Source: an uncultured Actinomycetota bacterium
Lineage (GTDB): Bacteria; Actinomycetota; Actinomycetes; JAHEKZ01
Reading direction: 5' to 3'
NCBI GenBank assembly: GCA_963718235.1
Contig: CAVQYR010000001.1
Location: forward strand, 352,001-416,000
DNA: 64,000 nt
Shown: one piece after another, positions 14,749 to 33,274 of the stretch
Position numbering within the stretch: position 1 is the first letter of the stretch
Layout of the letters: each line of letters opens with the position of its first letter
Translations under genes and position numbers: made by a program
The notes under the pieces: generated by a model
The model's database searches: none
Seen by the model: only the letters and a program-made list of their open reading frames with translations
Told to the model about the DNA's origin: nothing

Positions 14749-15162
14749 TCACGGGTACTGGACGAGCTGGATCTGGTTGCCGTCGGGATCTTCTAGCGTG
14801 GCCAGCGTGCCGCCCCATGGTTGGTGCTCGGGTGGTCCGGCGACGCTCACCCCCTGAGCGATGAGCATCTCGACGGTCGCTGCGATGTCGGTGGCGGCGA
14901 ACGAGAGGCCGGAAAGGCGGCCGATCAGCTCACTAGCCGGGATCTCGGAGTCCGATTCGACCGTCTCGAGCACGAGGTCAGCGCCGATGTCGAACACGAC
15001 GTAGCCAGCTCGTGGTGATCCAGCTGTTGGGGCAGTGCCGATGACGGCCTCGTACCACCAAGCACTTCGGACGAGGTCGGTGACGAAGACACGAGCAGCG
15101 GCGAGGTGCACCTGGGCAGGGTATCCGACACGGCCTAGATGCCTAGCCGCATCTTCGTGCAT
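14749..15162 (-). CDS. VOC/glyoxalase-family protein
   Basis: VFVTDLVRSAWWY and PWGGTLATLEDPDGNQIQLVQ; start uncertain. Confidence 0.8.
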   Translation of the reverse strand: MHEDAARHLGRVGYPAQVHLAAARVFVTDLVRSAWWYEAVIGTAPTAGSPRAGYVVFDIGADLVLETVESDSEIPASELIGRLSGLSFAATDIAATVEMLIAQGVSVAGPPEHQPWGGTLATLEDPDGNQIQLVQYP

Positions 15163-17185: not shown

Positions 17186-18175
17186 CTACAACGGTGGGTA
17201 CTGTCTGCCAGTCGGCTCGTCGCGCTCGTAGACCTGCGAGGGCGGGCCCACGATGAGCGGGTCGGGGGTGCTGACGATGTCGAAGTCCTTGTCGCGGTAG
17301 TCGAACAAGGACAGCACCCACCGCATCGCCTCGAGCCGTCCCCGCTTCTTGTCATTGCTGCGAACGACGGTCCAAGGCGCCCAGTCGGTGTTCGTGTAGT
17401 AGAACATCGCCTCCTTGGCGTCGGAGTAGGCGTCCCACTTGTCAAGGGAGGCGAGGTCTGTGGGGCTGAGCTTCCACTGCCGCACCGGATCTATTCGTCG
17501 GATCGTGAACCGAGTGATCTGCTCCTTGCGGCTGACCGAGAACCAGAGCTTCACGATGGTCGTCCCCGAGCGGACGAGCATGCGTTCGAACTCAGGGACC
17601 TGGCGCAGGAATTCCCAGTACTCCTCGTCTGAGCAGAATCCCATCACTCGCTCGACGACGGCGCGGTTGTACCACGACCGGTCGAACAGCACCATCTCTC
17701 CAGCGGCCGGCAAGTGTTGGACGTAGCGCTGGAAGTACCACTGAGCCCGCTCGCGCTCGGTCGGCTTCAACAGCGCGACCACGTTGGCGCCGCGGGGGTT
17801 GAGGTGTTCCATGAATCGCTTGATGGTTCCGCCCTTGCCGGCCGCATCGCGCCCCTCGAAGAGGATCAGCACCCGCTGACCGGTCTTCCTCACCCAGGTC
17901 TGAAGCTTGAGCAGCTCGATCTGCAACAACCGCTTGTCGACCTCGTACTGCCAACGACGCATCCGGACGTCGTAGGGGTATCCCTCGCGCCACGTGTCCA
18001 CTGGCGTTCCGCCCGGCCCGAGCAGCACTGGGTCGTCGATCTCGTCCCAGGTTCCTTCGACGGCAAGTCCACGGTCCTGCAGCTCCTCGTCGGACAGCTC
18101 CTTAAGCGACGTGATGATGTCGGCCAGATCGACGACGGCTTCGATGTCGACCTCGTGTATGCGCGCGTCTGACAT
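17186..18175 (-). CDS. ppk2: Polyphosphate kinase 2
   Basis: FEGRDAAGKGG Walker A, FDRSWYNR and WKLSPTD. Confidence 0.95.
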   Translation of the reverse strand: MSDARIHEVDIEAVVDLADIITSLKELSDEELQDRGLAVEGTWDEIDDPVLLGPGGTPVDTWREGYPYDVRMRRWQYEVDKRLLQIELLKLQTWVRKTGQRVLILFEGRDAAGKGGTIKRFMEHLNPRGANVVALLKPTERERAQWYFQRYVQHLPAAGEMVLFDRSWYNRAVVERVMGFCSDEEYWEFLRQVPEFERMLVRSGTTIVKLWFSVSRKEQITRFTIRRIDPVRQWKLSPTDLASLDKWDAYSDAKEAMFYYTNTDWAPWTVVRSNDKKRGRLEAMRWVLSLFDYRDKDFDIVSTPDPLIVGPPSQVYERDEPTGRQYPPL

Positions 18176-18382
18176 GTCGCCTCCTGGCAACAAGCATGCA
18201 CCTCGACGGCTGGGCCGATCCGGACGAGCCCAAAGCGTCGCTGTCCGTTCACTCTCGTCCCTGGACGATGACTCCGTCGCATCAGAAGGAGCCCGTCGTG
18301 GTGCAGGCACGGCGGCGGTCCCCCGGGGTGCGGAGGTGACGGCACTCGGGCGAACGGTGTCGACCATCCCAGCTCAGGTCCC

Positions 18383-18398
18383 TGTGAGTGTCATGACA
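18383..18398 (+). promoter_or_regulatory. CRP-family binding box TGTGA-N6-TGACA
   Basis: 9/10 match to TGTGA-N6-TCACA; centre is 30.5 bp upstream of a weak -10-like TACGGC (18421). Confidence 0.6.
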
Positions 18399-18473
18399 GG
18401 CCTTGCCAAGCAGGGTCGGCTACGGCCAGAGTGGCCCAAGCAACAGGGTGCCTGTCCGAGCGAGGAGGCCACC

Positions 18474-19058
18474 GTGCCTGATCCCTACGAAGGCGCACAT
18501 GGGTTCGTCTTCCTGCACGACGACGACATGAGGGCACCAGCAGAGGTGATCGGCGAGCTGCGCCAGAACCTCAGAACTCCGGACGACCCCGACCGGCCAG
18601 TATTCTTTGCCGCGACCTTCCAAGGTGACTTCGCGGGGTTTGCTCACTTCGCTGCCGACGACCTCGAAGGTCTGGCGGACCTCACCGGATCGCTCCTGTT
18701 CGACGCGGGTATCCACTCGGACTACGCGGTGGAGGGTGTGTACTACAAGAACGCACGGTCGGTACCCATGGCCCCGAAGCGCAAGAGCCCTCGCTTCTGC
18801 GCGATCTGCCGAGTTCGCACGAGCGAGACACCCGCGGTCGTCCTCGACGCGATCGCCCGGGAGTTCGATGAGAGTGAGCCGTTCGTCGGAGGGTCACGGG
18901 TGATCGGGACCTTCCAGCTGCTCATCGAGCTGGGCAGTGACGACGAACCGAGTCTCGAGGTTGCGATCGAACGGCTGCTCGGTGTCTCGGGGGTGACCAC
19001 CGCCCAGGTCGGAACGACCGACACCGGACGCAGAGAAGACGAAGGGCGCAGTGCCTGA
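18474..19058 (+). CDS. Hypothetical protein with two Lrp/AsnC ligand-binding-like domains
   Basis: GAGGAGG SD before GTG. Two similar units (FAATFQGDFAGFAHFAADDLEGL and GSRVIGTFQLLIELGSDDEPSL..LLGVSGV). No HTH. Overlaps the cyclase start. Confidence 0.6.
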   Translation: MPDPYEGAHGFVFLHDDDMRAPAEVIGELRQNLRTPDDPDRPVFFAATFQGDFAGFAHFAADDLEGLADLTGSLLFDAGIHSDYAVEGVYYKNARSVPMAPKRKSPRFCAICRVRTSETPAVVLDAIAREFDESEPFVGGSRVIGTFQLLIELGSDDEPSLEVAIERLLGVSGVTTAQVGTTDTGRREDEGRSA

Positions 19059-22000
19059 GACACAGGCGGAACGAAAGCTCGCCACCGTCCTGTTCGTCGA
19101 CCTGACCGGCTTCACGGCCCTGGCGGCGTCGTTGGATCCCGAGGACGTCTTCTCCCTCATCAGACCGACCATGCTGGACCTCAAGCAGATCGCCGAGGCG
19201 CACGGGGCAACCGTCCCCGAGATCCAGGGTGACGGCTTTATGGCCCTGTTCGGTGTGCCCACCACCCACGAGGACGACGCGGAGCGGGCAGTGCGCGCGG
19301 CGCTGGCCTGCCGCGACCGCATCCGGGTGTTGAACGAGGGCCGCTCCGGGCTCACGATCCCCGAGACGCACTCGGGCGTGAACTCAGGTGAGGTGATGGT
19401 TGGCTCGTCCACGACGGACTTCGGCCTGACCGTGATCGGCGACGTGGTCAACACCGCATCGCGGCTGGCCGATCTCGCGCCCGCGGGAACAGTGATCGTC
19501 GAGGAGGGGACCTGGCAGCGGACCAAGCACGCCATCGGGTACGGGCCACGGCGTACCTTCCGGGCCAAGGGCAAGGCAGAGCCGGTGGCCGCGTTCGAGG
19601 CGCGGGCTCCGCGGACGGCGATGCCGGTCGGTCGGCGGACGCACCCAGGATCGGACTTCGTGGACCGGGTGGCCGAGCGCGAGGAGCTGGCGCAGGAGCT
19701 TCGCACGGTGAGCCGCGAGGGACGGCCGCGGGTCGTCATCGTGGCCGCCGAGCCCGGGGCGGGGAAGACGAGACTCGCCTCGGAGTTCACCCGCCGAAAC
19801 CCCGACCTTCTCGTTCTGGCCGGTCGAGCCACCGCCTACGGGCAGAGCACGCCCGTCTCGCCGCTCGGCGCCGCGGTGGCGGAGATCGTCGGGGTCCCGC
19901 CCGGAACGTCGGCGAAGGCAGGGCTGCGCCGCATCCGTGCCCTCGCCGACCGGATCGCGAGCGGCGGCGAGCGTCGTTCCCTGGTCCGAGGCATGTCCCT
20001 GCTGCTGGGGATCGGGATCGGGGACGAGGACGCAGCCCGCTCGCGGGGCACCGAGGAGGCCATCGCGGCCGCCCGAACCGTGCTCGAGGCGCTCGCCCGC
20101 GAGCGACCGATCGTCGTCCTGCTCGACGACCTGCAGTGGGCCGACCCGGCCGTGGTGGAGGCACTCCGCAGTGTCGGGGACCAGCCGTGGGTCGGTCCGA
20201 TCCTGTTCCTGGGCCTCACCCGTCCGGAATCGCTCCCCAGCCTGACGAACGTTCGAAGGATCGAGCTCGGGGCCATCCCCGGCCCGTTCATGGACGAGCT
20301 CGCCTCCCTCACCCTCGGCCAGGGGTCGGTCACTCCGGAGCTCACCGCCGTCATCTCTCGTGCGGGCGGCAACCCGCTGTTCCTCGAGGAGAGCATCAGC
20401 ATGCTGATGGAGTCGGGCGCGCTGGCCCTGACCGGCTCGGAGTGGGTCGTCGTCGATCCGGTTCAGCTGAGCCGGGTTCCGACGACTGTTCGTGCCGTCG
20501 CCGCCGCTCGACTGGACGGGTTGCCTGCCGACGAGAAGCGGTTGCTCCAGTGCGCTGCGGTCTCAGGCGAGATCACCTGGGACAGACTCCTCGACCGGCT
20601 GGCGCCGGAGATCGACGTGGGCGCGGCTCTGCGACGCCTCGTCGACCGAGACCTGCTGCGTCGACGCCGCGGTTCGCACGTGAGGGGGGCGACCGAGCTC
20701 GTCTTCAAGCATGCGCTGATTCGCGATGTCTCCTACAGCTCGCTGCCCCGTGAGGAACGCGTTCACCTGCACCTGGACGTCGCCGAATGGCTCGTCCAGG
20801 GCGCCCGGCCGTCGCGGGAGCCGGTCGACCAGCTTGCCCAGCACTACTGGCAGGCCTGGAGCCTGGCGACGGCGTCGACGGTCTCTGTTGCACCTGCTGG
20901 CCTGGCTCGGTCGGCGTCGCTGTTCGTCGGGCGCTGGGCCGACGAGACGATGCGCTACCAAGCCCTGGCGGCCGAGTCGCTGTACTCCCGCGCGATCGCC
21001 GTGGATCGGGCCGGCGGGGACGAAGTCGAGCCGGAGCTGTGCACCCGGCATGCGATCGGGCACGCCGAGTGTCTGATCGAGCTGGGCCGCCACGCGGAGG
21101 CCAAGGTCGCCGCCGTCCGGGCGCTCGAGCTCGCCGGAACGCTGGGCGACGAGCGTCTGGAGGCCCGAGCCCTCGTCGCCCTGGGCCGGGTGGAGTCCGA
21201 CGTGGGCGACGATGCCGAAGCTCGCGTGCTGCTCGAGCGGGCACTGGTCGCCTTCCAGACGGTCGGCGACGTGTCCGGGGTGGCGTGGGCCACCCACAGG
21301 CTGTCAGAGCTGTCCGCCCGGACTGACTACGCCGAGAGTCTGGAGTACCTGCGGGTGGCTCACCGGCTGTTCGTCGAGTCCGGCGACCACTGGGGGCGGG
21401 TGATCTCAGCCCAGGACCTGGCCTACATGTTGAGCATGGTGGGAGGCGCGGAGTTCCGCCGCTGGTACCGCGAGTGTGAGCGGCTGGCTGAGGGTGAAGG
21501 CGACCTGCGGTCGCGGGCTGCGTTGCTGCGGACGCTCGGTTACCACCAGTACTACTGCGGAGAGCACGAGGCGGCCATCGCGACCATGCACGAGGCCGGA
21601 CCGGTCGCCCGAGCCGCCGGCGACCGCTATGCGCTGGCGGATGCCTTGCTGATCGAGGCCCTGGCTGCGGCGGCCGTGAGTCCGCCCAAGGAAGCATGGG
21701 TCGCTGCGGAGGCGGTCGTGACGTTCGGAGGTGACATCCAGTCGGACCGGTTGAAGGGCCTCGGACTGGCTGCTGAGGGCCGGGCGGCCTTGCGCGGTGG
21801 TGACCCGCGCCGCGCGACCCGCTGCCTCACTGCCTGCCGACGCACTCTCGGTCGGCTGGGCGCCCGCGCTGAGCTGGCCGAGGCGGACCTGATCACAGCC
21901 GAGGTGATGCTCGACCGAGGGGCGTGGGGGAGGGTCCGCGAGCCCGCGATGAACGGCGCCCGAGAAGCCGTGGCGAACTCGATGACCCTCGTCGAGCCCA

Positions 22001-22485
22001 TCGGGCCGCTCCTGGTCGGCCGGGCGGCGCTCGGCGCCGGTGACCTCGCGCAGGCGAGCACGGTGCTGACCCAGGCAGTCGCGCTGGCCCGCGGCTCCGG
22101 GGCGAGTGGAACCCTCGCCGTGGCGCGTGCCGCGCGAGACCAGGCACTGCTCCTGTCGGCCCGAAAACCTCGTCCCCGTCGACTTCGAGGGCCAGGAGTC
22201 GTGGCCCAGGCGATAGAGGAGGAGAACCACGGTCTGGTGTGCCTGTGGGAGCAGCGGTACGAGGACGCTGCCGTGTCGTTGCAGCGCGCCGTTGACCACT
22301 GGGGGCTCCTCGGCTCGACGGTGTGGCTGGCCCGCGCCCTGGTGATGCTCGGCGACGCGCGTCGACGGGCAGGCGATCGATCGGGGTCGGCGTCCGCGCG
22401 ATCACGCGCCCGACGGGTGCTCGCGCGGCTGGACACACCCGATGCCGAGCGTCAGGACGTGATGGATGTCCTGAGCCGTTGGTGA
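19051..22485 (+). CDS. Class III nucleotide cyclase fused to a STAND/AAA ATPase and TPR-like repeats
   Basis: Cyclase motifs FVDLTGFT, EIQGDG and VIGDVVNTASRL. Walker A AEPGAGKT, Walker B LLDDLQWAD, GGNPLFLEE. Long helical repeat C-terminus. Confidence 0.93.
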   Translation: MPETQAERKLATVLFVDLTGFTALAASLDPEDVFSLIRPTMLDLKQIAEAHGATVPEIQGDGFMALFGVPTTHEDDAERAVRAALACRDRIRVLNEGRSGLTIPETHSGVNSGEVMVGSSTTDFGLTVIGDVVNTASRLADLAPAGTVIVEEGTWQRTKHAIGYGPRRTFRAKGKAEPVAAFEARAPRTAMPVGRRTHPGSDFVDRVAEREELAQELRTVSREGRPRVVIVAAEPGAGKTRLASEFTRRNPDLLVLAGRATAYGQSTPVSPLGAAVAEIVGVPPGTSAKAGLRRIRALADRIASGGERRSLVRGMSLLLGIGIGDEDAARSRGTEEAIAAARTVLEALARERPIVVLLDDLQWADPAVVEALRSVGDQPWVGPILFLGLTRPESLPSLTNVRRIELGAIPGPFMDELASLTLGQGSVTPELTAVISRAGGNPLFLEESISMLMESGALALTGSEWVVVDPVQLSRVPTTVRAVAAARLDGLPADEKRLLQCAAVSGEITWDRLLDRLAPEIDVGAALRRLVDRDLLRRRRGSHVRGATELVFKHALIRDVSYSSLPREERVHLHLDVAEWLVQGARPSREPVDQLAQHYWQAWSLATASTVSVAPAGLARSASLFVGRWADETMRYQALAAESLYSRAIAVDRAGGDEVEPELCTRHAIGHAECLIELGRHAEAKVAAVRALELAGTLGDERLEARALVALGRVESDVGDDAEARVLLERALVAFQTVGDVSGVAWATHRLSELSARTDYAESLEYLRVAHRLFVESGDHWGRVISAQDLAYMLSMVGGAEFRRWYRECERLAEGEGDLRSRAALLRTLGYHQYYCGEHEAAIATMHEAGPVARAAGDRYALADALLIEALAAAAVSPPKEAWVAAEAVVTFGGDIQSDRLKGLGLAAEGRAALRGGDPRRATRCLTACRRTLGRLGARAELAEADLITAEVMLDRGAWGRVREPAMNGAREAVANSMTLVEPIGPLLVGRAALGAGDLAQASTVLTQAVALARGSGASGTLAVARAARDQALLLSARKPRPRRLRGPGVVAQAIEEENHGLVCLWEQRYEDAAVSLQRAVDHWGLLGSTVWLARALVMLGDARRRAGDRSGSASARSRARRVLARLDTPDAERQDVMDVLSRW

Positions 22486-22544
22486 CACCGACTGGGTGAG
22501 CGCGCAGACCTCGCTGCGGTCGCGGTCCCTCGGTGAAGCAACGG

Positions 22545-22700
22545 GATCGGCCCGGGCGACCCGGACGGCGAAACACCCAGGACGGGCGTTGTGCATGTGC
22601 ACGAAGTCGACCCGCGTGTCCAAGAACAGCCGGTCGAGCTCTGCTTCGAGCTTCGTGCCCTCGACGACCTCGGCGTCGGCCATCATGGCCGCGGCGTCTG
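22545..22700 (-). pseudogene. C-terminal remnant of a DUF1203-like protein
   Basis: MMADAEVVEG..LFLDTRVDFVHMHNARPGCFAVRVAR; N-terminal half missing. Confidence 0.6.
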
Positions 22701-22829
22701 GGCGTCAATGCCACTCTCGCGGATCGCAGGCCGCGAGACCGGCGAGTTTCGGACCGGGCATGGGCGTGCCGACCGCTGGGGACGCAGCGCGGCGGGTGAG
22801 GTCAGGGCGGTCGGACTCCCAGCGGCACG

Positions 22830-22896
22830 TGTCGCACAGCTGACAGCCCCCCTGTCGCCCAGACGACAGACAGACCCTGGACAGGCGGTGCACACT
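22830..22896 (+). promoter_or_regulatory. Tandem CRP-like boxes and a -10-like element upstream of the peptide gene
   Basis: TGTCG-N6-TGACA (22830-22845) and the perfect palindrome TGTCG-N6-CGACA (22853-22868). CACACT at 22891-22896 is 30.5 bp from the centre of the second box. Confidence 0.65.
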
Positions 22897-22951
22897 GAGT
22901 ACGTCAGAACGGCCCGGTCCCCCCGGGACCACTCCAACGGAGGAGCGCACC

Positions 22952-23104
22952 ATGTCAGACACCACCCAGCCCGACGCCACCCAGCCCACACCCGAAGACG
23001 ACACCGAAGGCTCGATCCTGCGGCACCCGAAGGCACAGGTCGAGGACGAGACGGCCGTCGAGGACGACACCCAAGGTCACATCGCGAGGGGCCACGGCAA
23101 GTAG
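22952..23104 (+). CDS. 50-aa acidic repeat peptide (putative precursor peptide); not in the ORF track
   Basis: GGAGGA SD at 22939-22944. Translation MSDTTQPDATQPTPEDDTEGSILRHPKAQVEDETAVEDDTQGHIARGHGK*, with GC-rich third positions and a strong hairpin downstream. Confidence 0.8.
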   Translation: MSDTTQPDATQPTPEDDTEGSILRHPKAQVEDETAVEDDTQGHIARGHGK

Positions 23105-23191
23105 ATCGTCGAGGACACCGACGCGAAGGCGTCCACGTACTCAGACCTGCGGGGACTGCTGCCGGGTTCGGAAATCCGGCGACGAGTGATC

Positions 23192-23239
23192 AACACCGAG
23201 CCTGGCCCGGATCACACGATCCGGGCCAGGCTCGGTGTT
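23192..23239 (+). terminator. Perfect 22-bp stem-loop (terminator or transcript stabiliser)
   Basis: AACACCGAGCCTGGCCCGGATC-ACAC-GATCCGGGCCAGGCTCGGTGTT. Confidence 0.8.
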
Positions 23240-23384
23240 CGCATGACGTCGACGGCCATGAGTGGGCGCCCGGGAGGTACGGGTGGAGCAGTGCACGGCG
23301 CACCCATCGACCCCTGGCCCACCCTTGACCCGACGCGGGGCCCGCACCCATGATCCGCTGCAGGTTCCGACGAGGGAGCGAGCG

Positions 23385-25058
23385 GTGAGCGATCGATCGT
23401 CCGGAGGGTTTCGCTCAGCCCTGGCCCGGGCGGACTTCCGCAACCTGCTGTCCGGACTCGTCGTCTCGGGCACCGGCGACTGGATGTACAACGTCGCCCT
23501 GTTCGTGTACGTGCTGGACCGGACCGGTTCGCCGGGCTGGGTGGCCGCTGTCAGTGCGGTCAAGCTGCTGCCGGTCCTCCTCTTCAGCAGCGTCGGCGGT
23601 GTGGTCGCCGATCGGTACGACCGCCGGCGAGTGATGCTGGTCTCCGACCTGATCCGGGCGTTCCTCATGGTGGCGCTTGCGCTGATGGTCGGCGTCGACG
23701 GACCCCTCGCGTTCCTGCTGTTGATCGTGGCGGGGAGCTCGCTGGTCGGTACTCCCTACTACCCCGCAGTTGGTGCGCTGACCCCGAGCATGGTCGACGA
23801 GGACGACCTCGCAGCCGCAAACGCACTCAACGGCGCCGTGGACAACATCACGATCACGCTCGGGCCGGCTCTGGGCTCGGTCCTGCTCCTGCTTGGCTCA
23901 CCCTCCACGGCGATCGCCCTGAACGCAGTCACGTTTCTGGTGTCGGCGGCGTTCGTCTGGCGCATCCGGGGTCCGGCTCCCGGCGATCCGGACGCGAGCT
24001 CGCAGACGCTTCGGAGCCGCCTGGCGGCCGGGCTTGGAGCGATGACGCGTTCGCCGGACATCATGCTGCTGGTGCTCGTCTCGCTGGGGTTCACGCTGAC
24101 CTTCGGTATGGAGATCGTGCTGTTCCCGCTCATTGCCGATGAGCTGCTCGGAACCGGTGCGCAAGGCCTGGGGTGGCTGCTCGGGGCGTCCGGGCTGGGT
24201 GGGGTGCTCGGTACCTACGTTGCTGGGCGTCTGGCCGGCCGGCCACGGACCGCGATCATCCTGGTCGGGTCGGCGCTCCTGACGGCGTTGCCCCTGCTGG
24301 CGCTCACCGTGATCAGCCAGCCCGTGGTCGCGTACGCGGTGCTCCTGGCCGAGGGAGTGGGGTTCGTCGTCGGCGACGTCATCGCTGTGACGACGATCCA
24401 GCGGGTTGCTCCCGGCGAGGTGGTGGGTCGCGTGCTCGGCCTGCTCGGCACCGTGTTCGTCGGGGGGATCCTCGTCGGCAACCTGGTCGCGGGTGTGGCC
24501 GTCGACGCGGTCGGACTGGAAGGGGCCATGGTCCTCGGCTCGGCGTGCCTGATCGTGAGCGGACTGGCCGCGCTGCCTCGCGCCCGTCGGCTGGACCGTC
24601 AGTCGGCCGAGAGCGCGGCTGCGGTCGCGGACCGCGTCGCGTTGCTCCGACGACTGCGCATCTTCGACGGAGCCTCCCAGGCGACTCTGGAGTCGGTAGC
24701 CGCCGCTGCGACGGACCTTCACGTCACGCCCGGCACCGTGGTTGTCCGCGAGGGCGACACCGGGGACGCCTTCTACGTGGTGAGGACCGGCAGCTTCATG
24801 GTCAGTCCGGTCGGCCGGACGCTCGGAGCGGACGACTACTTCGGTGAGATCGGAATCCTCGAACGGGTGCCCCGCACCGCCACCGTCACCTCCACGACCG
24901 ACGCCGACCTGTACCGGATCGAGGCCGATGCGTTCGTCGCGGCGATCAACGAGGCCCCGGCCGGCATGCTTCGCCTGGCGGACACCCTGGCCGGGCGACT
25001 GGCCCGCACCCACCCGTCCCGCCGCGCCACGTTCAGCGGGCGTGAGCCCAGCGAGTAG
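23385..25058 (+). CDS. MFS transporter with a C-terminal cyclic-nucleotide-binding domain
   Basis: MFS motif GGVVADRYDRRRV and about 12 TM segments. C-terminal VVREGDTGDAFYVV...FGEIGILERVPRTATV. Confidence 0.9.
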   Translation: MSDRSSGGFRSALARADFRNLLSGLVVSGTGDWMYNVALFVYVLDRTGSPGWVAAVSAVKLLPVLLFSSVGGVVADRYDRRRVMLVSDLIRAFLMVALALMVGVDGPLAFLLLIVAGSSLVGTPYYPAVGALTPSMVDEDDLAAANALNGAVDNITITLGPALGSVLLLLGSPSTAIALNAVTFLVSAAFVWRIRGPAPGDPDASSQTLRSRLAAGLGAMTRSPDIMLLVLVSLGFTLTFGMEIVLFPLIADELLGTGAQGLGWLLGASGLGGVLGTYVAGRLAGRPRTAIILVGSALLTALPLLALTVISQPVVAYAVLLAEGVGFVVGDVIAVTTIQRVAPGEVVGRVLGLLGTVFVGGILVGNLVAGVAVDAVGLEGAMVLGSACLIVSGLAALPRARRLDRQSAESAAAVADRVALLRRLRIFDGASQATLESVAAAATDLHVTPGTVVVREGDTGDAFYVVRTGSFMVSPVGRTLGADDYFGEIGILERVPRTATVTSTTDADLYRIEADAFVAAINEAPAGMLRLADTLAGRLARTHPSRRATFSGREPSE

Positions 25059-25132
25059 CGCGAGACGGGTTCCCGACGGCGACCCGGCCGGATCCCATGC
25101 GTCCGGCCCCCGCCACCGCTAGCATCCGATCA

Positions 25133-25870
25133 ATGGACAGCAACGAGCTCGTCGCGCGGCTCGCGGACCTTGCCGGCGAGCTCGGGCCGGGGCTGGAACC
25201 CCCTGGGGCAACCGACCAGCTGCAGGACATCGTCGAGACCGTTCGGGACCTTCTGGGCTCTGCGGCGTGCTCGGTCGCCGCAGTCGACCGTGACGAGGGA
25301 ACCCTTGTGTTCGTTGCCGCCACCGGGGAGGGCGCGGACCGCGTGGTCGGCGCCCAGATGCCGCTGTCGAAGGGGATCGCGGGCTGGGTCGTCGCCTCGG
25401 GGCAGTCGCTCACTGTCTCGGACACGGCACAGGACTCCCGCTTCGCCGCCGACGTCGCCACCTCGACGGGGTACGTACCCACCTCGTTGCTGGCTGTGCC
25501 ACTCCACAGCGACGACGACGTGCTCGGCATTCTGGAGGTCCTCGACGCCACAGTCGAGCCGGACGCCGGCACCTCACGGCTGCTGGAGCTGTTGGCCCAG
25601 CAGGCCACGCTGACCCTGCAGACCCGCCGAGTCTTCGCCGACCTGGGCTTCGTCCTGCTGCAGGCCCTGAAGGGTGCGGATCAAGGTGGCGACCTGAGTG
25701 ATGCTCTCGACGCGGTGGTGACCGGCAGCAGTGGGTCGGTCAGGGAGCTGGCGAGGCTTGCCACGCTGTTCCAGTCCCTGGGTCGACTCGGCCCTGACGA
25801 ACGGTCTGCGGCGACGCGCATGCTGACGACGTTCGTCTCGTACGCGCAACAGGCGGCACCACAGCCGTGA
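25133..25870 (+). CDS. Stand-alone GAF-domain protein
   Basis: GIAGWVVASGQSL..D...DSRF and SLLAVPL...LGILEVLD. TAGCAT lies 7 nt before the ATG (leaderless-type start). Confidence 0.88.
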   Translation: MDSNELVARLADLAGELGPGLEPPGATDQLQDIVETVRDLLGSAACSVAAVDRDEGTLVFVAATGEGADRVVGAQMPLSKGIAGWVVASGQSLTVSDTAQDSRFAADVATSTGYVPTSLLAVPLHSDDDVLGILEVLDATVEPDAGTSRLLELLAQQATLTLQTRRVFADLGFVLLQALKGADQGGDLSDALDAVVTGSSGSVRELARLATLFQSLGRLGPDERSAATRMLTTFVSYAQQAAPQP

Positions 25871-26685
25871 AGCCCGCGTACACCTGGCAGTTCGACCCCC
25901 GCCACCTCGAGTCGGTGCCCGTCGACCTCCCGGTCGCGATCACCCCCGAGTGGGCGTGGGAGGGCAGCACTGGGGCCGGGGTCAAGGTCGCCATCGTCGA
26001 CAGCGGCGTCGACCCTGGGCACCGATGGGTCGGCTCGGTCGCCGGCGGAGTGGCCGTGGAGTACGACCCCGAGCTGGTTGCGCGGGTCCGGTTCGACGAG
26101 GGGCCCCACGAGGACCTGTTCGGGCACGGCACAGCATGCGCCGCGATCGTGCGCAAGACCGCTCCTGATGCGGAGATGTACAGCATCCGTGTGCTCGGCT
26201 CACGTCTGAGCGGCAAGGGCTTCGTCTTTGCGGCCGGTCTTCAGTGGGCCATCGAGCACGGTATGCAGGTCGTCAACCTGAGCCTGTCGACGCCGAGCCG
26301 GGCTCACTTCGCCGCGTTCCACCGTCTCGTCGACGAGGCGGCCCGTCGGCGGATCATGGTGGTGTCCGCCATGAACAACTGGCCCGGTCGCTCATACCCG
26401 TCGGAGTTCTCCGGGGTGTTCAGCGTCGCTGCCCACGAGGGCACCGACCCATACGCGTTCGACGTCAATCCGCGCCCTCCGGCCGAGTGGGGGGCTCCAG
26501 GGATCGACCTCGAGGTCGCGAGCCTGGGCGGGTCGACGATTCGGGCCACCGGCAACAGCTTCGCATCTCCGCACATGGCGGGACTGATCGCGAAGATCCT
26601 GGGCAAGCACCCCGACCTCACGGTCTTCCAGATGAAGGCGATCCTGCAGTCCCTGGCCCGTAACGCAGTCTCGGCGTCTGCCTAG
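25867..26685 (+). CDS. Minimal S8 (subtilisin-like) serine peptidase
   Basis: Catalytic triad motifs IVDSG, GHGTACA and GNSFASPH. No signal peptide or long propeptide. GTGA overlap with the GAF gene. Confidence 0.92.
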   Translation: MKPAYTWQFDPRHLESVPVDLPVAITPEWAWEGSTGAGVKVAIVDSGVDPGHRWVGSVAGGVAVEYDPELVARVRFDEGPHEDLFGHGTACAAIVRKTAPDAEMYSIRVLGSRLSGKGFVFAAGLQWAIEHGMQVVNLSLSTPSRAHFAAFHRLVDEAARRRIMVVSAMNNWPGRSYPSEFSGVFSVAAHEGTDPYAFDVNPRPPAEWGAPGIDLEVASLGGSTIRATGNSFASPHMAGLIAKILGKHPDLTVFQMKAILQSLARNAVSASA

Positions 26686-27371
26686 CCCCCAGCTCGGCGC
26701 TCCAACTGCGCGAAGTTCGTCACGGTCACATGTCGACCGTCGATGGTGATCCAGCCGCGCTCGGCAAAGCGGTGCAGCGCCTGGTTCAGGCTCTGCCGCG
26801 ACACCCCCACCATCTCGGCGAGCTCAGTCTGCGACAGAGGCAGGTCGACGGCGACGGGAGCTCCCTGGCCAGCGACCCGCTCTCGATCAGCCAGGCCGAC
26901 CAGCAGCTTCGCGACTCGTGCCTGCACGTCGAGGAACACCAGATCGCCGGTCTGCTCGGTGAGCCGACGGACCAGCGTGCCCAGAGACCGCAGCAGTCCA
27001 TCGACCAGTGCCGGCTCGTTGTGAAGTGCGTCGAGCAGGTCCTGGCGCCGGAGGGTGAACACGGTGGTGGGCTCCACCGCGACGGCCGACGTCGAGCGAG
27101 ACCCGCCGTCGACCAGGGACAGCTCGCCGAACGTCTCAGTCGGGCCGACCGTGGCCAACAGCATCTCGCGTCCGTCCGGTGACGCGATGGTGATCTTGAC
27201 CAGCCCCGAGACGACCAGGTACAGCGTGTCGCCCGGGTCCCCCTCGTGGAACAGGGTGTGACCGGCGGCGAACGACCGGCGAACGGCGCCGTCGTTGAGC
27301 CGCCGCAGGAACTTGGTGTCCAGACCGGCGAACAGCTCGGTCCCCGACAGTGGGACTTCGTTGGGTTCCAT
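26682..27371 (-). CDS. Crp/Fnr-family transcriptional regulator
   Basis: FHEGDPGD, FGELSLVDGGSRS and HTH LSQTELAEMVGVSRQSLNQAL. Confidence 0.93.
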   Translation of the reverse strand: MEPNEVPLSGTELFAGLDTKFLRRLNDGAVRRSFAAGHTLFHEGDPGDTLYLVVSGLVKITIASPDGREMLLATVGPTETFGELSLVDGGSRSTSAVAVEPTTVFTLRRQDLLDALHNEPALVDGLLRSLGTLVRRLTEQTGDLVFLDVQARVAKLLVGLADRERVAGQGAPVAVDLPLSQTELAEMVGVSRQSLNQALHRFAERGWITIDGRHVTVTNFAQLERRAGG

Positions 27372-27402
27372 GCGGCGAAAGGTGGCAGCCTCGCTGCCCG
27401 CG

Positions 27403-27825
27403 CTAGCCGAGCTTCGCTTCAGAGGCGCGGATTGTCTCGCAGAGTCCGACCAGGATCTTGCGCGTCAGAGCCGGGTTGTCGTCGAGCAACGGCTGGAACT
27501 TCCAGGCGGGAAGGGACAGCGTGCGCATGGCTGACTCGGTCTTCACGGTCGCGCTTCGTGGTTTGCCGTCGATGACCGAGATCTCCCCGAAGTAGTCACC
27601 GGGCGCGAGAGTCCGGATCGTGCGAGCGCCTTGGCTGACTGTCGCCGTTCCGTCGAGGATCAGGTGGAAACCGACCGAACCCCCGCCCTCCTCGACGACC
27701 TCGTGGCCGGCTTGGTGCTCGACGGTGCGGGAGGCGCTCACGACCGCATTGAGCTCCTTGTCCGAGAGCCCTTCGAACAACGGCACCGACTTCAGCCGCT
27801 GGAGCAGGTCCTTGTCCGCCGCCAT
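27403..27825 (-). CDS. Stand-alone cyclic-nucleotide-binding protein
   Basis: LKSVPLFEGLS...GDYFGEISVIDGKPRSATV; GGAGG SD before the ATG. Confidence 0.9.
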   Translation of the reverse strand: MAADKDLLQRLKSVPLFEGLSDKELNAVVSASRTVEHQAGHEVVEEGGGSVGFHLILDGTATVSQGARTIRTLAPGDYFGEISVIDGKPRSATVKTESAMRTLSLPAWKFQPLLDDNPALTRKILVGLCETIRASEAKLG

Positions 27826-28018
27826 GCCACGCCTCCGAGTCTGAGTGTGCCGAGGTAGGCACCTGAATCGAACAGTGCCACTCGCGGCAGTTCCCTGCAA
27901 GCGAATCGGGTCATGAAGAGCACCTGACCTTGGCTGCGCGAGCTCGTCGTGTCGACCACTCGCCCCAGGGGTGGGAATGGTCCACGAAGAACAGCTGAAA
28001 GCGCCTACTGTCTGCTCT

Positions 28019-28837
28019 GTGCTGCTGACCATGCTCGGCGTCCGAGGTTCGACTCCCGCGCCGGGGCCGGAGTTCGTCCGGTACGGCGGACACACCTCGT
28101 GCATCGCCCTGACCGCCAGCGGCCACGATCGTCCAACCCTCGTGCTGGACGCCGGTACCGGCCTGCGTGCCCTGACCTCCCTTCTGGACGGTCGGCCGTA
28201 TCGAGGGTCGATCTTGCTGAGCCACCTCCACTGGGACCACACCCAGGGTCTGCCGTTCTTCGTCGCAGGGGACCGTGACGACGCGGCAGTCGATGTCTAC
28301 CTACCCGCGCAGGAGGGACTGAGCGGGTTCGACCTGTTGGCGCAGTCCATGTCGCCGCCGACCTTCCCGATCACGCCTGCTGGTCTGCAGGGGAAGTGGT
28401 CCTTCAACGCACTCGAACCTGGCGAGTGCCGGGTCGAGGGGTTCACGGTTACTGCAGCAGACGTGCGCCACAAGGGCGGGCGAACGTTCGGGTACCGCAT
28501 CTCCGACGGGACCCGGGCGGTTGCCTTCCTGCCCGACCACGTGGCCAGGGGGGAGGTGACCGAGGAGCTGCAGCGGATCGGTGGTGGCGTGGACCTGCTC
28601 GTCCACGACGCCCAGTTCGTGGAGTCTGAGCGAGAACTCGCTGACGCCTACGGTCACTCGACCGTTGACGACGCTGTCGAGCTCGCGGTGTCCCTCGGGG
28701 CCCGCCGACTCGTCCTGTTCCATCATTCGCCGGCGCGAACCGACGACCAGCTGGACGCGATCCTGCGCCAGCTGAGCTGCCCGATCCCCGTCTCCCTGGC
28801 CCGCGAGGGCCAGGTGCTGGAGGTTGCCTCCGACTGA
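28019..28837 (+). CDS. MBL-fold metallohydrolase (RNase Z / cNMP-phosphodiesterase-like)
   Basis: GVRGSTP, YGGHTSC, LDAGTG, SHLHWDHTQG, HDAQF, GHST and FHHSP motifs. Confidence 0.88.
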   Translation: MLLTMLGVRGSTPAPGPEFVRYGGHTSCIALTASGHDRPTLVLDAGTGLRALTSLLDGRPYRGSILLSHLHWDHTQGLPFFVAGDRDDAAVDVYLPAQEGLSGFDLLAQSMSPPTFPITPAGLQGKWSFNALEPGECRVEGFTVTAADVRHKGGRTFGYRISDGTRAVAFLPDHVARGEVTEELQRIGGGVDLLVHDAQFVESERELADAYGHSTVDDAVELAVSLGARRLVLFHHSPARTDDQLDAILRQLSCPIPVSLAREGQVLEVASD

Positions 28838-28930
28838 CGGGCTCGAGGTCCGTGCGCCGGCGTCGGCTGCGTGGGCGACGCGCATGGCATCGGTGTCCGG
28901 CATCTGTTGCGCGAGTGGCAGGGTGTTGTC

Positions 28931-30757
28931 GTGAGCTTTGGCACCGGAGGCACTGCCCCTCCCCGGCAGCGGAGGGGCTGGTCAGGTCGTGGCCTGGCCG
29001 TTCTCGCCCTGGCCGGGCTCTCCTGGGTGGCGGCCCCACCGGTCTCCCAGGCGGCCGGCCAGGATCCGGTCGTCGTGACCGCCTCCGGCTCGGTGCGCGG
29101 AGTGGCAGAGTCCGGGCTCGACGTCTTCCGAGGGATCCCGTACGCCGCCCCGCCGGTCGACGAGCGACGCTTCCGACCACCTGCTCCCGTGGCGCCCTGG
29201 ACCGACGTCCGCGACGCCACGGCGTTCGGCCCGGCCTGCCCGCAGGACCCCGACGAGCACGAGATGGCCGAAGGCACTCCGACGTCCGAGGACTGCCTCA
29301 CCCTCAACGTGTGGTCCCGGTCAGACGGTGCGCAAGCCCCCGTCGTGGTCTTCATCCATGGCGGTGGGTTCACCGCTGGCTCCACGCTGGATCCCTGGTA
29401 CGACGGAGCCGCCTTCGCCCAGCGCGGGATCGTGTTCGTGAGCCTTCAGTACCGCGTTGGCCCGCTCGGCTGGCTCGACCTCAGCAAGCTCGGGCCGCAG
29501 TACGCGACCAGCGGCAACGATGGTCTGCAGGACCAGATGGCAGCGCTGCGCTGGGTGCGTACCAACGCCGCGGCGTTCGGGGGTGACCCGAAGAACGTGA
29601 CCATCGTCGGCGAGTCCGCGGGCGCGATCAGTATCTCCGCGCTGCTGGGGTCACCTGCCGCCGACGGTCTGTACGACCGAGCGATTCTCGAGAGCGGCAC
29701 GCCGGGAACCGTCGCCACGCGCGACTGGTCCCAGCGCGTCTTCGAGCGGTTCGTCGAGTTCTCCGGCGTCTCCGAGCCTGAGGACATCCTGAGCCTGCCG
29801 ACGGACCGGGTGCTCGACGCAGCTCGCCAGATCTACGACACCGAGCTCTCCGACACCGCGTTCCACCCCCTTGTTGACGGCGTGATCCTGCCGCAGCTGC
29901 CGATGAGACGGATCGCCGCGGCGGACGGTCCGAAGGTGCCGGTGATCATCGGGACGAACCTCGACGAGGCTCGGTACTGGCTGTACTACATCCCTGAGCT
30001 CGACCGCCTGCCGTTGCGCTACTACCGACCGTGGCTTGAGTCCCTCGTCGGTGAGCGTGCCGACGACGTCATCGCGGCCTACCGGGCCGAGCGACCCGAG
30101 CTCGACGAGGCCCAGACCGGACTCGCGCTGTCCGGTGACGTCGGCTTCCGGATGCCCGCGATCCGCATGGCCGAGGCACTGTCGGCCCGTGGCGTCCCGG
30201 TGTGGATGTACTTGGCCACCATCGACTCGCCGGACCTCGACGGCCGCATGGGGTCCGCACACGCGATCGAGCTGCCGTTCGTGTTCGACAACCTCACCGC
30301 CGACCGTGCCCCCGAGCTCGTCGGGACGGACCCGGCGAACGAGGCGCTCGCCGACACGACACAACGGCTGTGGGTGTCGTTCGCCACCGACGGGGTCCCG
30401 TCGGCGTCTGGGGCCCCGAAGTGGCCGACCTACGACGCTGCCGATCGCACGACGCTCCTGCTCGACCGGACGCTTGCGATCGAGGACGACCCCTACCCGG
30501 CGAGCCGCAATGCCTGGGGGCCGATGCGGTTCGACGGCTCGGATCCTGGCCTGAACCGCCTGACGGCGCTGCAGTACGAGGGCACGAACCCCAACGACCC
30601 ACTCGTGATCGCTGCCGTCATCGGCTGGCAGTGGGTGATCCTCGGTGGAGCCGTCCTGATCGGCATCGTGGTCGCGTTGGCGCTCCTGCTGCGTTGGGTC
30701 CTCCGGCGGCTCCGGCTCGGTTCCGAACGGCGTGAGTCGACACCCATGCCCCGATAG
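28931..30757 (+). CDS. Type-B carboxylesterase with signal peptide and C-terminal TM anchor
   Basis: FRGIPYA, SEDCLTLNVW, HGGGF, GESAG and AHAIELPFVF. Confidence 0.9.
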   Translation: MSFGTGGTAPPRQRRGWSGRGLAVLALAGLSWVAAPPVSQAAGQDPVVVTASGSVRGVAESGLDVFRGIPYAAPPVDERRFRPPAPVAPWTDVRDATAFGPACPQDPDEHEMAEGTPTSEDCLTLNVWSRSDGAQAPVVVFIHGGGFTAGSTLDPWYDGAAFAQRGIVFVSLQYRVGPLGWLDLSKLGPQYATSGNDGLQDQMAALRWVRTNAAAFGGDPKNVTIVGESAGAISISALLGSPAADGLYDRAILESGTPGTVATRDWSQRVFERFVEFSGVSEPEDILSLPTDRVLDAARQIYDTELSDTAFHPLVDGVILPQLPMRRIAAADGPKVPVIIGTNLDEARYWLYYIPELDRLPLRYYRPWLESLVGERADDVIAAYRAERPELDEAQTGLALSGDVGFRMPAIRMAEALSARGVPVWMYLATIDSPDLDGRMGSAHAIELPFVFDNLTADRAPELVGTDPANEALADTTQRLWVSFATDGVPSASGAPKWPTYDAADRTTLLLDRTLAIEDDPYPASRNAWGPMRFDGSDPGLNRLTALQYEGTNPNDPLVIAAVIGWQWVILGGAVLIGIVVALALLLRWVLRRLRLGSERRESTPMPR

Positions 30758-32383: not shown

Positions 32384-33274
32384 ATGGATACGACGAGGCC
32401 TCCCGACCGTTCCGGCGCGCTCGCGCGACTGGTCGACGGCCCGCGGTTCAACGGTGCGATCGCCGCAGTCATCGTCGTCAATGCCATCATCCTGGGTCTC
32501 GAGACGTATCCCGGAGTGGTCGCTGAGCACGGGGCTGCCCTGCTGCGCCTCAACGAGATCTTCTACGCCGTGTTCCTCGGTGAGCTGGTGCTGCGCTTCG
32601 CTTCGTACCACCGCCGACCGTCGGACTTCTTCCGCAGCGGATGGAACGTGTTCGACCTCGTCGTCATCGGCGCCGTGCTCATCCCCGGGGTGCGCGAGCA
32701 GGCACAGCTGCTTCGCATCCTGCGCCTGGCCCGAATCGTCCGGCTGGTCCGATTCCTTCCTGATGCCCGCGTGCTCGTCCTCACTGTCATCAAGTCGATT
32801 CCCTCGTTGTTCAGCATGGTCGTGCTCGTCGTCCTGCTGATGTTCATCTACGGAATGGTGGGGTGGGCGGCCTTCGGGGAAGCGCTGCCTGAGACCTGGG
32901 GAACGATCGGTCGGTCGATGCTGACTCTGTTCGTACTGCTCACGTTGGAGAACTTCCCGACGTACCTCGCCGAGGCTGAGGGTGTCAGCGCATTCGCGAT
33001 CCCGTACTTCCTCTCCTACCTTCTCCTTGCCGCGTTCCTCGTGTTCAACCTGTTGATCGGGATCGTGATCAGCTCGATGGAGAAGGCCCGAACGCACTAC
33101 GCGAACGAGAGCGCCGACGCGGATCGCCCCTCGGGGTCCGAGCCGCTCGCATTGGCGACCGGCGACGGACTGCAAGGGAAGATCCAAGAGGTCCGTGCGG
33201 CACTCGATGCGCTGGAGGGCGAGCTGCAGAGTCGAGGCCCGGTCTCCGACTCGGCGAACGGCAGGAGGGAGTAG
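32384..33274 (+). CDS. Bacterial voltage-gated Na+/Ca2+ channel (BacNav-like ion transporter)
   Basis: GWNVFD; S4 segment LRILRLARIVRLVR; pore LTLENFP; FNLLIGIVI; coiled-coil tail. Confidence 0.9.
   Translation: MDTTRPPDRSGALARLVDGPRFNGAIAAVIVVNAIILGLETYPGVVAEHGAALLRLNEIFYAVFLGELVLRFASYHRRPSDFFRSGWNVFDLVVIGAVLIPGVREQAQLLRILRLARIVRLVRFLPDARVLVLTVIKSIPSLFSMVVLVVLLMFIYGMVGWAAFGEALPETWGTIGRSMLTLFVLLTLENFPTYLAEAEGVSAFAIPYFLSYLLLAAFLVFNLLIGIVISSMEKARTHYANESADADRPSGSEPLALATGDGLQGKIQEVRAALDALEGELQSRGPVSDSANGRRE

Follow-up and report, generated by a model that had tools for sequence, protein, structure and literature searches.

The window analysed here is a 64,000-nucleotide stretch of the genome of an uncultured Actinomycetota bacterium (contig CAVQYR010000001.1, positions 352,001 to 416,000 of the forward strand). 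Some ten kilobases of it encode a class III cyclase, three proteins with cyclic-nucleotide (cNMP)-binding domains, a hydrolase, a small subtilisin-like (S8) protease with a GAF-domain partner, and a 50-amino-acid repeat peptide. A first-pass annotation of the sequence had grouped these genes into one peptide and cyclic-nucleotide signalling system. We find that the gene set is indeed a conserved system. Short open reading frames (ORFs) with repeats of the DDTEGH or DVEGH type, the GAF-S8 pair, a Crp paralogue and an MFS transporter fused to a cNMP-binding domain travel together across 80 loci. A failure to co-occur in other genomes, which the first-pass annotation had named as grounds for refuting its idea, is thus not what we see for this core. 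Among the sources we searched, neither the peptide family nor the gene set has a published or family-library description.

What might such a system do? In the reading that we favour, and regard as roughly an even bet, Crp would drive expression of a repeat precursor; the GAF-S8 pair would cut this in the cytoplasm, and a cNMP-gated MFS transporter would release the products. The remaining genes would form a separable second-messenger sub-module.

Genes of the system and their conservation

Domains were assigned by Pfam and NCBIfam scans of the window's ORFs, and the Pfam calls reported lie above the curated cut-offs. They confirm the domain make-up given by the first-pass annotation, with the exception of its 'AsnC-like' label. 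The forward strand encodes a 1144-amino-acid protein that joins a class III cyclase to a STAND AAA_16 domain and TPR repeats (19051-22485; Guanylate_cyc, AAA_16, TPR_12), the 50-residue peptide (22952-23104), an EntS/MFS_3-type transporter with a C-terminal cNMP_binding domain (23262-25058; MFS_3/MFS_1 and cNMP_binding in Pfam, with NCBIfam support), a GAF protein (25097-25870; GAF) and a minimal S8 protease of 272 amino acids, whose start overlaps the GAF stop (25867-26685; Peptidase_S8). On the reverse strand lie the Crp paralogue (26682-27371; cNMP_binding and HTH_Crp_2) and a stand-alone cNMP-binding protein of 139 amino acids (27403-27822; cNMP_binding only). A metallo-beta-lactamase (MBL)-fold hydrolase follows on the forward strand (28031-28837, alternative start 27971; Lactamase_B_2, PF12706). 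All three cNMP-binding domains retain the FGE...R[ST] phosphate-binding cassette. The whole genome (3.17 Mb) has 13 cNMP_binding and 12 cyclase-domain matches; three cNMP_binding matches and one cyclase match fall inside these 10 kb, a clustering that is far from random.

An alignment of six S8 orthologues was used to scan one genome per prokaryotic species (the GTDB species set), giving 598 pattern matches, 575 of which encode an S8 relative. The 80 loci discussed throughout are the best-scoring of these 575, with 54-77% identity to the window's S8; they are labelled Actinomycetota, Dormibacterota, Chloroflexota and a few others. Component genes were counted by tblastn with the window proteins, the STAND cyclase being counted within 8 kb of S8.

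The GAF gene adjoins S8 in 80 of 80 loci: the GAF protein is an obligate partner of the protease. Crp is present in 67 and the MFS transporter in 57, in 51 of them as one high-scoring segment pair that extends from the membrane region through the fused cNMP domain. The cNMP-only protein (33/80) and the STAND cyclase (28/80) co-occur more weakly, still well above expectation, whereas the MBL gene, which the first-pass annotation had counted among the members, is found in only three. The cyclase and the MBL hydrolase are accessory, not core. De novo clustering of all ORFs in the 80 loci revealed no further widely shared family and no tailoring enzyme. Gene order is strongly shuffled.

In a comparison set of 40 related genomes, seven have clear S8 orthologues (45-77% identity, near full length). 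The S8 gene lies next to GAF in all seven of these loci, and Crp is adjacent in six. One relative, G025, gave weak S8 matches only, and the search found no S8 in G001, a 99% complete genome of the same genus, so that the module counts as accessory. tblastn with the window GAF and S8 proteins found no second copy of it in the genome.

A family of tandem-repeat peptides

The peptide family is too divergent for single-sequence search: a protein search with the window peptide returned itself and one 46-amino-acid protein, 82% identical. We therefore used motif scans for tandem DD[VT]EG[HQ] repeats, with a strict and a slightly relaxed pattern. Short tandem-repeat ORFs were found in 49 of the 80 loci by the strict pattern and in 55 by the relaxed one, with 2-10 repeats and a basic tail; the relaxed scan of the whole 3.17 Mb genome gave zero matches. 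Repeat peptides also occur in the loci of relatives L001 and L006 and in the more distant L002, L003 and L005. Across 50 loci the surroundings of the peptide gene take 28 distinct forms, and its neighbours are nearly always genes of the system.

The repeat unit is well defined. In 51 peptides with 208 units, weighted so that each peptide counts equally, the successive positions are D (0.78), D (0.97), V or T (0.59/0.37), E (0.82), G (1.00) and H or Q (0.74/0.22). Each motif is followed by 4-8 mostly basic residues, about four of the positions being rich in R and K, often with Pro, and the repeat period is mostly 12-17 residues. The ORF stops 3-7 residues past the last motif in 34 of the 51 peptides. 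The invariant Gly uses all four codons (GGC 66, GGT 52, GGG 15, GGA 4), so selection acts at the protein level; the motif Val and Glu likewise use several codons.

The window's own gene is preceded by a GGAGGAG Shine-Dalgarno sequence and has a G+C content at third codon positions (GC3) of 0.86. Its product contains two units, EDDTEGSILRHP and EDDTQGHIARGHGK, in which an EDDT[EQ]G unit occurs twice. It has no hydrophobic N-terminus and no signal peptide. Neither it nor two repeat peptides from other loci match an NCBIfam model or any Pfam family above the cut-off, and the 52 database relatives of one family member are called 'hypothetical protein' or have no meaningful name. Literature searches, which did not reach supplementary files, found no relevant paper on the repeat motif or the gene set. 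None of the ORFs that overlap the peptide gene or run antisense near it (22496-23328) matches a Pfam family. In six long-read metagenome-assembled genomes (L012, L014, L046, L061, L064, L069) the repeat array is readable in two frames, which could reflect homopolymer sequencing error or genuine repeat instability.

The DNA between the peptide gene and the MFS gene is predicted to fold strongly. The region 23100-23265 has a minimum free energy of -89.6 kcal/mol (z -5.75) and includes a hairpin with a perfect 22-bp stem (23192-23239, forward strand). A pattern scan around the peptide gene found no canonical terminator, and this hairpin has no U-tract; it is a candidate terminator, attenuator or stabiliser. 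The 110 nucleotides after 50 peptide genes give -54.2 kcal/mol compared with -45.5 in controls from the same loci (Mann-Whitney p = 3e-9, computed on loci that are not independent).

The operator and the Crp paralogue

A count of palindromes in the 220 nucleotides upstream of 51 peptide genes singles out TGTC-N8-GACA, which is present in 38 of the 51 regions. The 50 sites lie mostly 86-136 nucleotides 5' of the ATG (range -64 to -186) and are often paired 23 bp apart. The window has the same arrangement: two exact palindromes (22830-22845 and 22853-22868) stand 124 and 101 nucleotides ahead of the peptide ATG, and we propose them as the operator of the local Crp paralogue. A putative -10 element, CACACT (22891-22896), would place the proximal box near -42, plausibly a class II activator position.

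The box is concentrated at peptide genes. The 1.11 Mb of the 80 loci contain 104 exact boxes, 65 of them within 400 nucleotides upstream of a repeat-peptide ORF. Of the remainder, nine are upstream of a cNMP-only gene alone (with two more shared with a peptide ORF), seven of GAF alone and one of a cyclase alone, and 18 lie elsewhere. The whole genome contains 18 exact boxes, which by our own estimate is about the number expected from base composition; two of them are the pair ahead of the peptide gene.

The first-pass annotation had placed related CRP-like boxes ahead of two units and had proposed Crp control of the peptide and cyclase genes. At the peptide gene the box is well supported: it is an exact pair, conserved across loci, and it tracks a particular class of Crp, as set out below. 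On the cyclase side the site at 18383-18398, TGTGAGTGTCATGACA, has one mismatch and lies 91 nucleotides 5' of the GTG at 18474. There are five sites with at most one mismatch between positions 15000 and 33000, this one included, and it may be a chance occurrence. Crp control of the cyclase genes finds little echo in the other loci, with one box in 104 ahead of a cyclase alone.

Which Crp would read this operator? The window protein belongs to the CRP/FNR family (Pfam scores of 91.3 and 67.5 bits, above the cut-offs) and aligns over its full length with the structures of GlxR and Mycobacterium tuberculosis CRP (E 1e-46), keeping FGELS...SRSTSAV. Its recognition helix reads SRQSLNQAL where GlxR and mycobacterial CRP have SRETVNKAL, and a second Crp elsewhere in the genome carries the canonical SRETVNKAL helix. 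The consensus site of CRP and GlxR is TGTGA-N6-TCACA. We reject the window Crp as the global CRP/GlxR orthologue on its helix, on the canonical paralogue and on the box, TGTC-N8-GACA.

The (S/T)RQ(S/T) helix is kept in the Crp orthologues. At loci with a Crp of the RQS or RQT type, an exact box precedes 28 of 35 peptide genes; of the seven without one, five carry a pair of boxes with one mismatch each, in the same spacing. In the E. coli catabolite activator protein, the Glu in the RE pair recognises base pair four of TGTGA. We infer that the change from RE to RQ matches the difference of TGTC at that base pair.

A more distant class of Crp, with a helix of the form (S/T)RPT(V/A)N or SRVRVN, occurs at other loci (L039, L045, L049, L052, L063, L065, L072-L075, L078, L083; L058, L071, L076, L084). 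There the exact box occurs with less regularity (at 6 of the 11 loci that have a peptide), a sign that operator specificity may have diverged.

The GAF-S8 pair and the transporter

The S8 protein is a subtilase (86.1 bits against a cut-off of 21.8 for PF00082). Its catalytic triad (D45, H87, S231) and oxyanion residue (N171) are invariant in 31 aligned sequences. It aligns to residues 2-253 of mature subtilisin BPN' only and has neither a signal peptide nor an I9 prodomain. The GAF protein has a helical C-terminal extension of about 80 residues. In 15 of 59 longer homologues GAF and S8 form a single polypeptide; other S8 fusions among the 59 are to a Crp-type protein (1), MFS_3 (2) and a protein kinase (3). 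In Miltoncostaea oceani the gene order is S8, GAF, a small protein, MBL and MFS. A separate S8 subfamily (P0030-P0066), 35-39% identical to the window's protein, is fused to DUF1611 (PF07755, often PF17396).

The MFS gene has an in-frame GTG at 23385 that is a possible alternative start. Two further MFS-cNMP paralogues are encoded in the genome (G000 C1:1411788-1413308 and C2:271883-273424), neither beside a GAF-S8 pair.

The second-messenger genes

The cyclase domain (19051-19650) scores 56.9 bits against a cut-off of 21.9 for PF00211, which places it in class III. Aligned to the structures 2w01 and 3r5g it keeps FVDLTGFT, GDG and NTASR, which contain the metal-binding and transition-state residues. 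At the position where a Lys specifies the purine it has Glu (PEIQGDG), as does the Cya2 chain 2w01 (DEFMGDG), its best alignment; Lys is found there in the chimera 6fht, in CyaB and in the cluster-linked cyclases of other loci (EKFIGDA). Four STAND cyclase paralogues in the genome also have Lys (EKF in three, QKF in one). With the base-specifying Lys replaced by Glu, the product may be cAMP, cGMP or another nucleotide. Cya2 is a guanylate cyclase, and the product of the window cyclase could be cGMP rather than cAMP. The cluster-linked cyclases of other loci are 27-46% identical to the window's over the cyclase domain.

Another candidate identity, the kinase/cyclase fusion of thiazole/oxazole-modified microcin (TOMM) systems, is rejected: the match to TIGR03903 scores 187.3 bits against a cut-off of 705.75 and covers profile positions 313-1040, the cyclase-STAND part only. 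The link of the cyclase to TOMM systems comes from the name of this NCBIfam model alone. Haft 2010 places a Ser/Thr kinase beside nitrile hydratase leader peptide (NHLP) precursors and mentions no cyclase link (PMC2887384).

The MBL hydrolase matches PF12706 at 83.7 bits and has an HxHxDH-type motif, HLHWDH. Its nearest models are RNase Z and a cyclic-nucleotide-degrading phosphodiesterase, although against the latter (NF041851) it scores 46.9 bits with a cut-off of 400. The published work on Rv1339, an atypical class-II phosphodiesterase of mycobacteria, assigns that enzyme to PF12706 and places it close to RNase Z (PMC9293780). The window protein thus shares with Rv1339 the Pfam family and an intact motif, but differs in falling far below the phosphodiesterase cut-off.

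Where else is the MBL gene found? Its orthologues occur in 16 of the 40 relatives, some of which have no S8 module; where both are present they are on separate contigs. In 5 of 5 MBL loci of relatives the neighbours are homologues of the cNMP-only protein, the MFS-cNMP fusion or the STAND cyclase, and the first two also adjoin MBL in relatives without an S8 module there. The window protein is 44% identical to the MBL of the Miltoncostaea S8-GAF-MBL-MFS cluster. Its shared family with Rv1339 and these neighbours support a phosphodiesterase role, and we consider it a probable cyclic-nucleotide phosphodiesterase. The first-pass annotation had made it the enzyme that degrades the system's cyclic nucleotide; this function remains plausible, while membership of the S8 module does not. 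As a core member it is rejected, since it is present at 3 of the 80 S8 loci and in relatives lacking the module, and we assign it instead to the cNMP genes that it accompanies.

These observations support two sub-modules. Sub-module A comprises the cyclase, the MBL hydrolase, the cNMP-only protein and often the MFS-cNMP fusion; sub-module B comprises the peptide, GAF-S8 and Crp. The two can occur apart and are often joined, as they are in the window.

Comparison with known systems

By analogy, the logic of the system most resembles that of multi-cassette precursors which S8 proteases process, such as those of the cyanobactins and yeast alpha-factor, and that of QhpE.

The nearest NCBIfam model for the window S8 is QhpE (NF049966). 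QhpE is a cytoplasmic subtilisin-like protease that removes the leader peptide of QhpC before export, which takes place through a dedicated transporter (PMC7876137). Both would be small, prodomain-less, cytoplasmic S8 proteases encoded beside a peptide substrate. Membership is nevertheless rejected: at 111.8 bits the S8 falls short of the cut-off of 165, and neither the window nor the conserved neighbourhood contains the QhpD radical-SAM enzyme, the QhpG flavoprotein or the dehydrogenase subunit. The candidate substrate here is a repeat peptide, and the protease has a GAF partner and an MFS transporter; in the Qhp system the substrate is a cross-linked enzyme subunit and the transporter is of the ABC type.

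The cyanobactin precursor PatE contains several cassettes that each pair a conserved recognition motif with an adjacent variable stretch, and these are excised by the S8-family proteases PatA and PatG. The same logic of a multi-cassette precursor and an S8 protease would apply here. No heterocyclase, macrocyclase domain or tailoring enzyme is conserved in the present system, however; the phyla are others, and the cNMP components have no cyanobactin counterpart. PatA/PatG identity of the S8 protein itself (TIGR03895) is rejected at 31.7 bits against a cut-off of 421 and with no heterocyclase or PatE-type neighbours. Yeast alpha-factor is made as tandem pheromone copies with basic/acidic spacers, released by the S8 kexin Kex2. 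That pathway is eukaryotic and secretory, whereas we propose cytoplasmic processing, and only the S8 fold is held in common.

The RRNPP systems (Rap-Phr, PlcR-PapR) use short linear peptides, with subtilisin-family processing of Phr precursors, and receptors of the TPR type. The TPR domain of the window cyclase is a likeness, but the differences are considerable. The precursor here has no Sec signal, no Opp importer or other oligopeptide permease is among the conserved neighbours, and the TPR domain is part of a cyclase-STAND fusion with no helix-turn-helix or other DNA-binding output and no phosphatase output, present at 28 of the 80 loci. The regulator with a conserved operator is the Crp paralogue and not the TPR protein. 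RRNPP membership is rejected on these grounds.

Domain-level matches to Pycsar anti-phage systems were returned by PADLOC: the cyclase matches PycC (best 43.4 bits), and the three cNMP-binding domains match Pycsar effector models. The architecture of the window is unlike the compact Pycsar operon of PycC and an adjacent cNMP-binding effector.

A more distant relative is found on the linear plasmid of Streptomyces sp. NBC_00184 (NZ_CP108138; locus L088), where a 1052-amino-acid cyclase-domain protein, S8 and GAF are translationally coupled. The S8 (42% identity) and the GAF protein are homologous to those of the window, and a small peptide of three repeats is encoded nearby. The cluster also encodes two radical-SAM enzymes, a glycosyltransferase, a prolyl oligopeptidase, an MFS transporter and an 'aroma-sacti' precursor (NF045560). 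The three-repeat peptide is 87 residues long and adjoins a radical-SAM/SPASM enzyme; each repeat has a PEV[VI]AH motif and a W-C-G-[IV]-H-Q core. It looks like an uncharacterised multi-core RiPP, a peptide that is ribosomally synthesised and post-translationally modified. The 'aroma-sacti' precursor has a PEVQAH-type motif before a short C-terminal stretch (the peptide regions are L088 14478-14741, reverse strand, and 3610-3819, forward strand). The acidic PEV.AH motif of these precursors is reminiscent of DVEGH. The NBC_00184 cluster differs from the window in its two radical-SAM enzymes, glycosyltransferase and prolyl oligopeptidase, in the Cys of the cores, in the order S8 then GAF, and in having no Crp annotated in the 14.8-kb stretch, for which the PLSDB gene tables are incomplete. 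An 'aroma-sacti' or StsA-related identity (NF045560, NF045559) of the window peptide is rejected: it has no NCBIfam match, and both the window and the conserved neighbourhood lack a radical-SAM gene. No paper mentioning the name 'aroma-sacti' was found in the literature library searched.

A working model and its rivals

In the favoured reading, the Crp paralogue with its cyclic nucleotide would bind the tandem TGTC-N8-GACA operators, some 40 and 65 bp upstream of where transcription is likely to start. The small gene would then supply a precursor of tandem DD[VT]EG[HQ] units, each followed by its 4-8 mostly basic residues. The prodomain-less subtilisin and its GAF partner would act as a complex on this signal-less precursor in the cytoplasm, recognising the conserved repeat motif and releasing units of about 12-17 residues. 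The EntS-like MFS transporter, gated by its C-terminal cNMP-binding domain, would export the products. Sub-module A would make the second messenger (the STAND-TPR cyclase), read it (the cNMP-only protein) and remove it (the PF12706 hydrolase as phosphodiesterase). From genomic context we infer that Crp binds the box, that S8 cuts the precursor and that the MFS transporter exports the products. That the released peptides are an intercellular signal is our preferred guess.

Several findings weigh against this reading. The window peptide is a degenerate two-unit form with a single strict motif. By motif scan 25 of the 80 loci have no peptide, several of these on short contigs; variant motifs (DDAEGQ, AEVEGH, PDVAGH) can be seen by eye in a few of them, leaving about 21 of 80 without one. 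The closest relatives (L001, L006, L008-L010) have the peptide module with no MFS, cyclase or MBL gene in the sequence examined, so export by this MFS transporter is not obligatory. The GAF domain has no recognisable cNMP-binding signature, as judged from sequence and alignment with the NKFDE motif as the guide. Some predicted S8 fusions, most of which are single-member clusters, are possibly artefacts of gene calling or of long-read frameshifts. The 80 loci are phylogenetically related, being the best relatives of one query, and their counts therefore overstate independence. Finally, RNA support is weak: metatranscriptome X9 (share 0.13) has a 189-nucleotide contig over 22760-22945 and a 313-nucleotide contig over 23726-24035, for which DNA carry-over is possible, and none over the peptide ORF. 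The samples in which the sequence occurs carry the habitat labels freshwater and sediment, which are labels only.

A larger version of the model would wire second messenger and peptide pheromone together. A poly-pheromone precursor would be diced by a GAF-regulated subtilisin and released through a cNMP-opened transporter, with auto-induction by Crp and sensing, where it is present, by the TPR arm of the STAND cyclase, possibly with cGMP as the messenger. We consider this conceivable, though rather unlikely.

The first-pass annotation had gone further and closed the loop in the manner of quorum sensing: the TPR/STAND cyclase senses the peptide, Crp-cNMP switches on the peptide gene together with the cyclase genes, and the signal is reset by the MBL enzyme. 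The window cyclase does have TPR repeats, a related box does stand at 18383 ahead of the operon of the orphan ORF described below and the cyclase, and a Crp box ahead of the peptide gene would yield positive feedback. The presence of a STAND cyclase within 8 kb of S8 at 28 of 80 loci also greatly exceeds what the density of such genes in this genome, about one per 600 kb, would give. Yet 52 loci have no cyclase in reach, and the cyclases that are linked have the canonical Lys where the window's has Glu; at 27-46% identity over the cyclase domain they are not one orthologous receptor. Only one of the 104 boxes is upstream of a cyclase alone. The cyclase, moreover, lies in the cytoplasm, and no peptide importer of the Opp kind emerged as conserved from the de novo clustering. 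Peptide sensing that switches on the cyclase is thus not borne out across the loci, where the cyclases are not clear orthologues of the window's, and we judge the closed loop unlikely.

Could the peptide instead never leave the cell? The repeat protein might be a cytoplasmic regulator or buffer, for example an acidic, His-rich protein that binds metal or protein, which the GAF-gated S8 destroys in an intracellular proteolytic switch; the MFS-cNMP protein would then move other cargo, such as a cyclic nucleotide or a small molecule. Peptide and protease both lack a signal sequence, the units are rich in Asp, Glu and His, and GAF domains, here always paired with S8, are ligand sensors. The module of the closest relatives has no adjacent MFS gene, and MFS-cNMP homologues also adjoin MBL without any S8 module. 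Against this, MFS lies beside GAF-S8 at 57 of 80 loci, and two MFS_3-S8 fusions are predicted. Gln replaces His at 22% of the motif positions (weighted), which speaks against a metal site in the strict sense. Repeated units whose motif is conserved and whose tail varies, in an ORF that stops soon after the last of them, are typical of a multi-product precursor, and distant S8-GAF pairs lie inside bona fide RiPP clusters with exporters. We think such a switch improbable.

It is very unlikely that the genes are a Pycsar or STAND anti-phage island, in which the cyclase would sense infection and cNMP-binding effectors (a membrane protein and a protease) would abort it. The PADLOC matches (43 bits for the cyclase with PycC, and those of the cNMP domains with Pycsar effectors), the patchy distribution of the module, with S8 not found in G001, and a Glu at the base-specifying position that leaves the cyclase product open would all fit. 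But the PADLOC matches cover generic cyclase and cNMP-binding folds only, and the conserved core of peptide, GAF-S8 and Crp with its operator is absent from described Pycsar systems. The cyclase is missing from 52 of the 80 loci, the membrane partner is a full 12-helix EntS-type MFS protein rather than a short pore-forming effector, and de novo clustering showed no phage or mobile-element genes in the conserved neighbourhood.

That there is no system at all, only common signalling genes brought together by chance in a genome with 12 cyclase-domain and 13 cNMP_binding matches and a small ORF that is one of the many spurious frames of high-GC DNA, is scarcely credible in the face of the gene co-occurrence, peptide repeats, operator, fusions, arrangements and codon use across loci.

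The larger version of the model, if true, would describe a new class of bacterial cell-cell signalling, widespread in soil and freshwater Actinomycetota, Dormibacterota and Chloroflexota. A large unannotated peptide family and a conserved seven-part gene set are in any case found in phyla whose peptide signalling, orphan cyclases and cNMP-binding proteins are poorly understood. The model offers testable roles for MFS-cNMP fusions, STAND-TPR cyclases and GAF-S8 pairs, which are common and unexplained in Actinomycetota. TGTC-N8-GACA and the RQS-helix Crp form an operator and regulator pair that illustrates a way of keeping a Crp paralogue apart from the global CRP regulon. The S8-GAF(-cyclase) trio in a Streptomyces RiPP cluster suggests a general, overlooked link between cyclic nucleotides and the maturation of ribosomal peptides. 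The model can be tested at the bench because a cultured carrier exists, Geodermatophilus amargosae CPCC 205244 (L070).

Flanking genes and minor observations

The genes on either side do not co-occur with the module elsewhere. A PPK2 polyphosphate kinase (17186-18367, reverse strand) precedes it and is present at 0 of the 80 S8 loci. It is followed on the forward strand by a carboxylesterase with a hydrophobic C-terminal tail (28871-30757) and a voltage-gated-type ion transport protein (32384-33274; Ion_trans).

Directly upstream of the cyclase gene, an ORF of 194 amino acids with a likely GTG start (18474-19058, forward strand) has a GAGGAGG Shine-Dalgarno sequence and a GC3 of 0.76, and its stop overlaps the cyclase start. 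The first-pass annotation had called it a tandem AsnC-like protein. Up to an E of 0.01 it matches nothing in Pfam or NCBIfam, and it has no homologue in the 40 relatives or the 80 S8 loci, so the label is unsupported; an AsnC/Lrp (RAM) identity is rejected, AsnC_trans_reg not being matched in either scan. This orphan ORF is a local accessory, outside the conserved system.

The 466-nucleotide spacer between the cyclase and peptide genes contains part of a 94-amino-acid ORF on the reverse strand (22402-22686), which continues from there into the 3' end of the cyclase gene. Its first 45 residues match the C-terminal end of DUF1203 only (positions 72-116 of 116). The ORF resembles a gene remnant and hints at a past rearrangement or insertion at the junction of the cyclase and the peptide gene.

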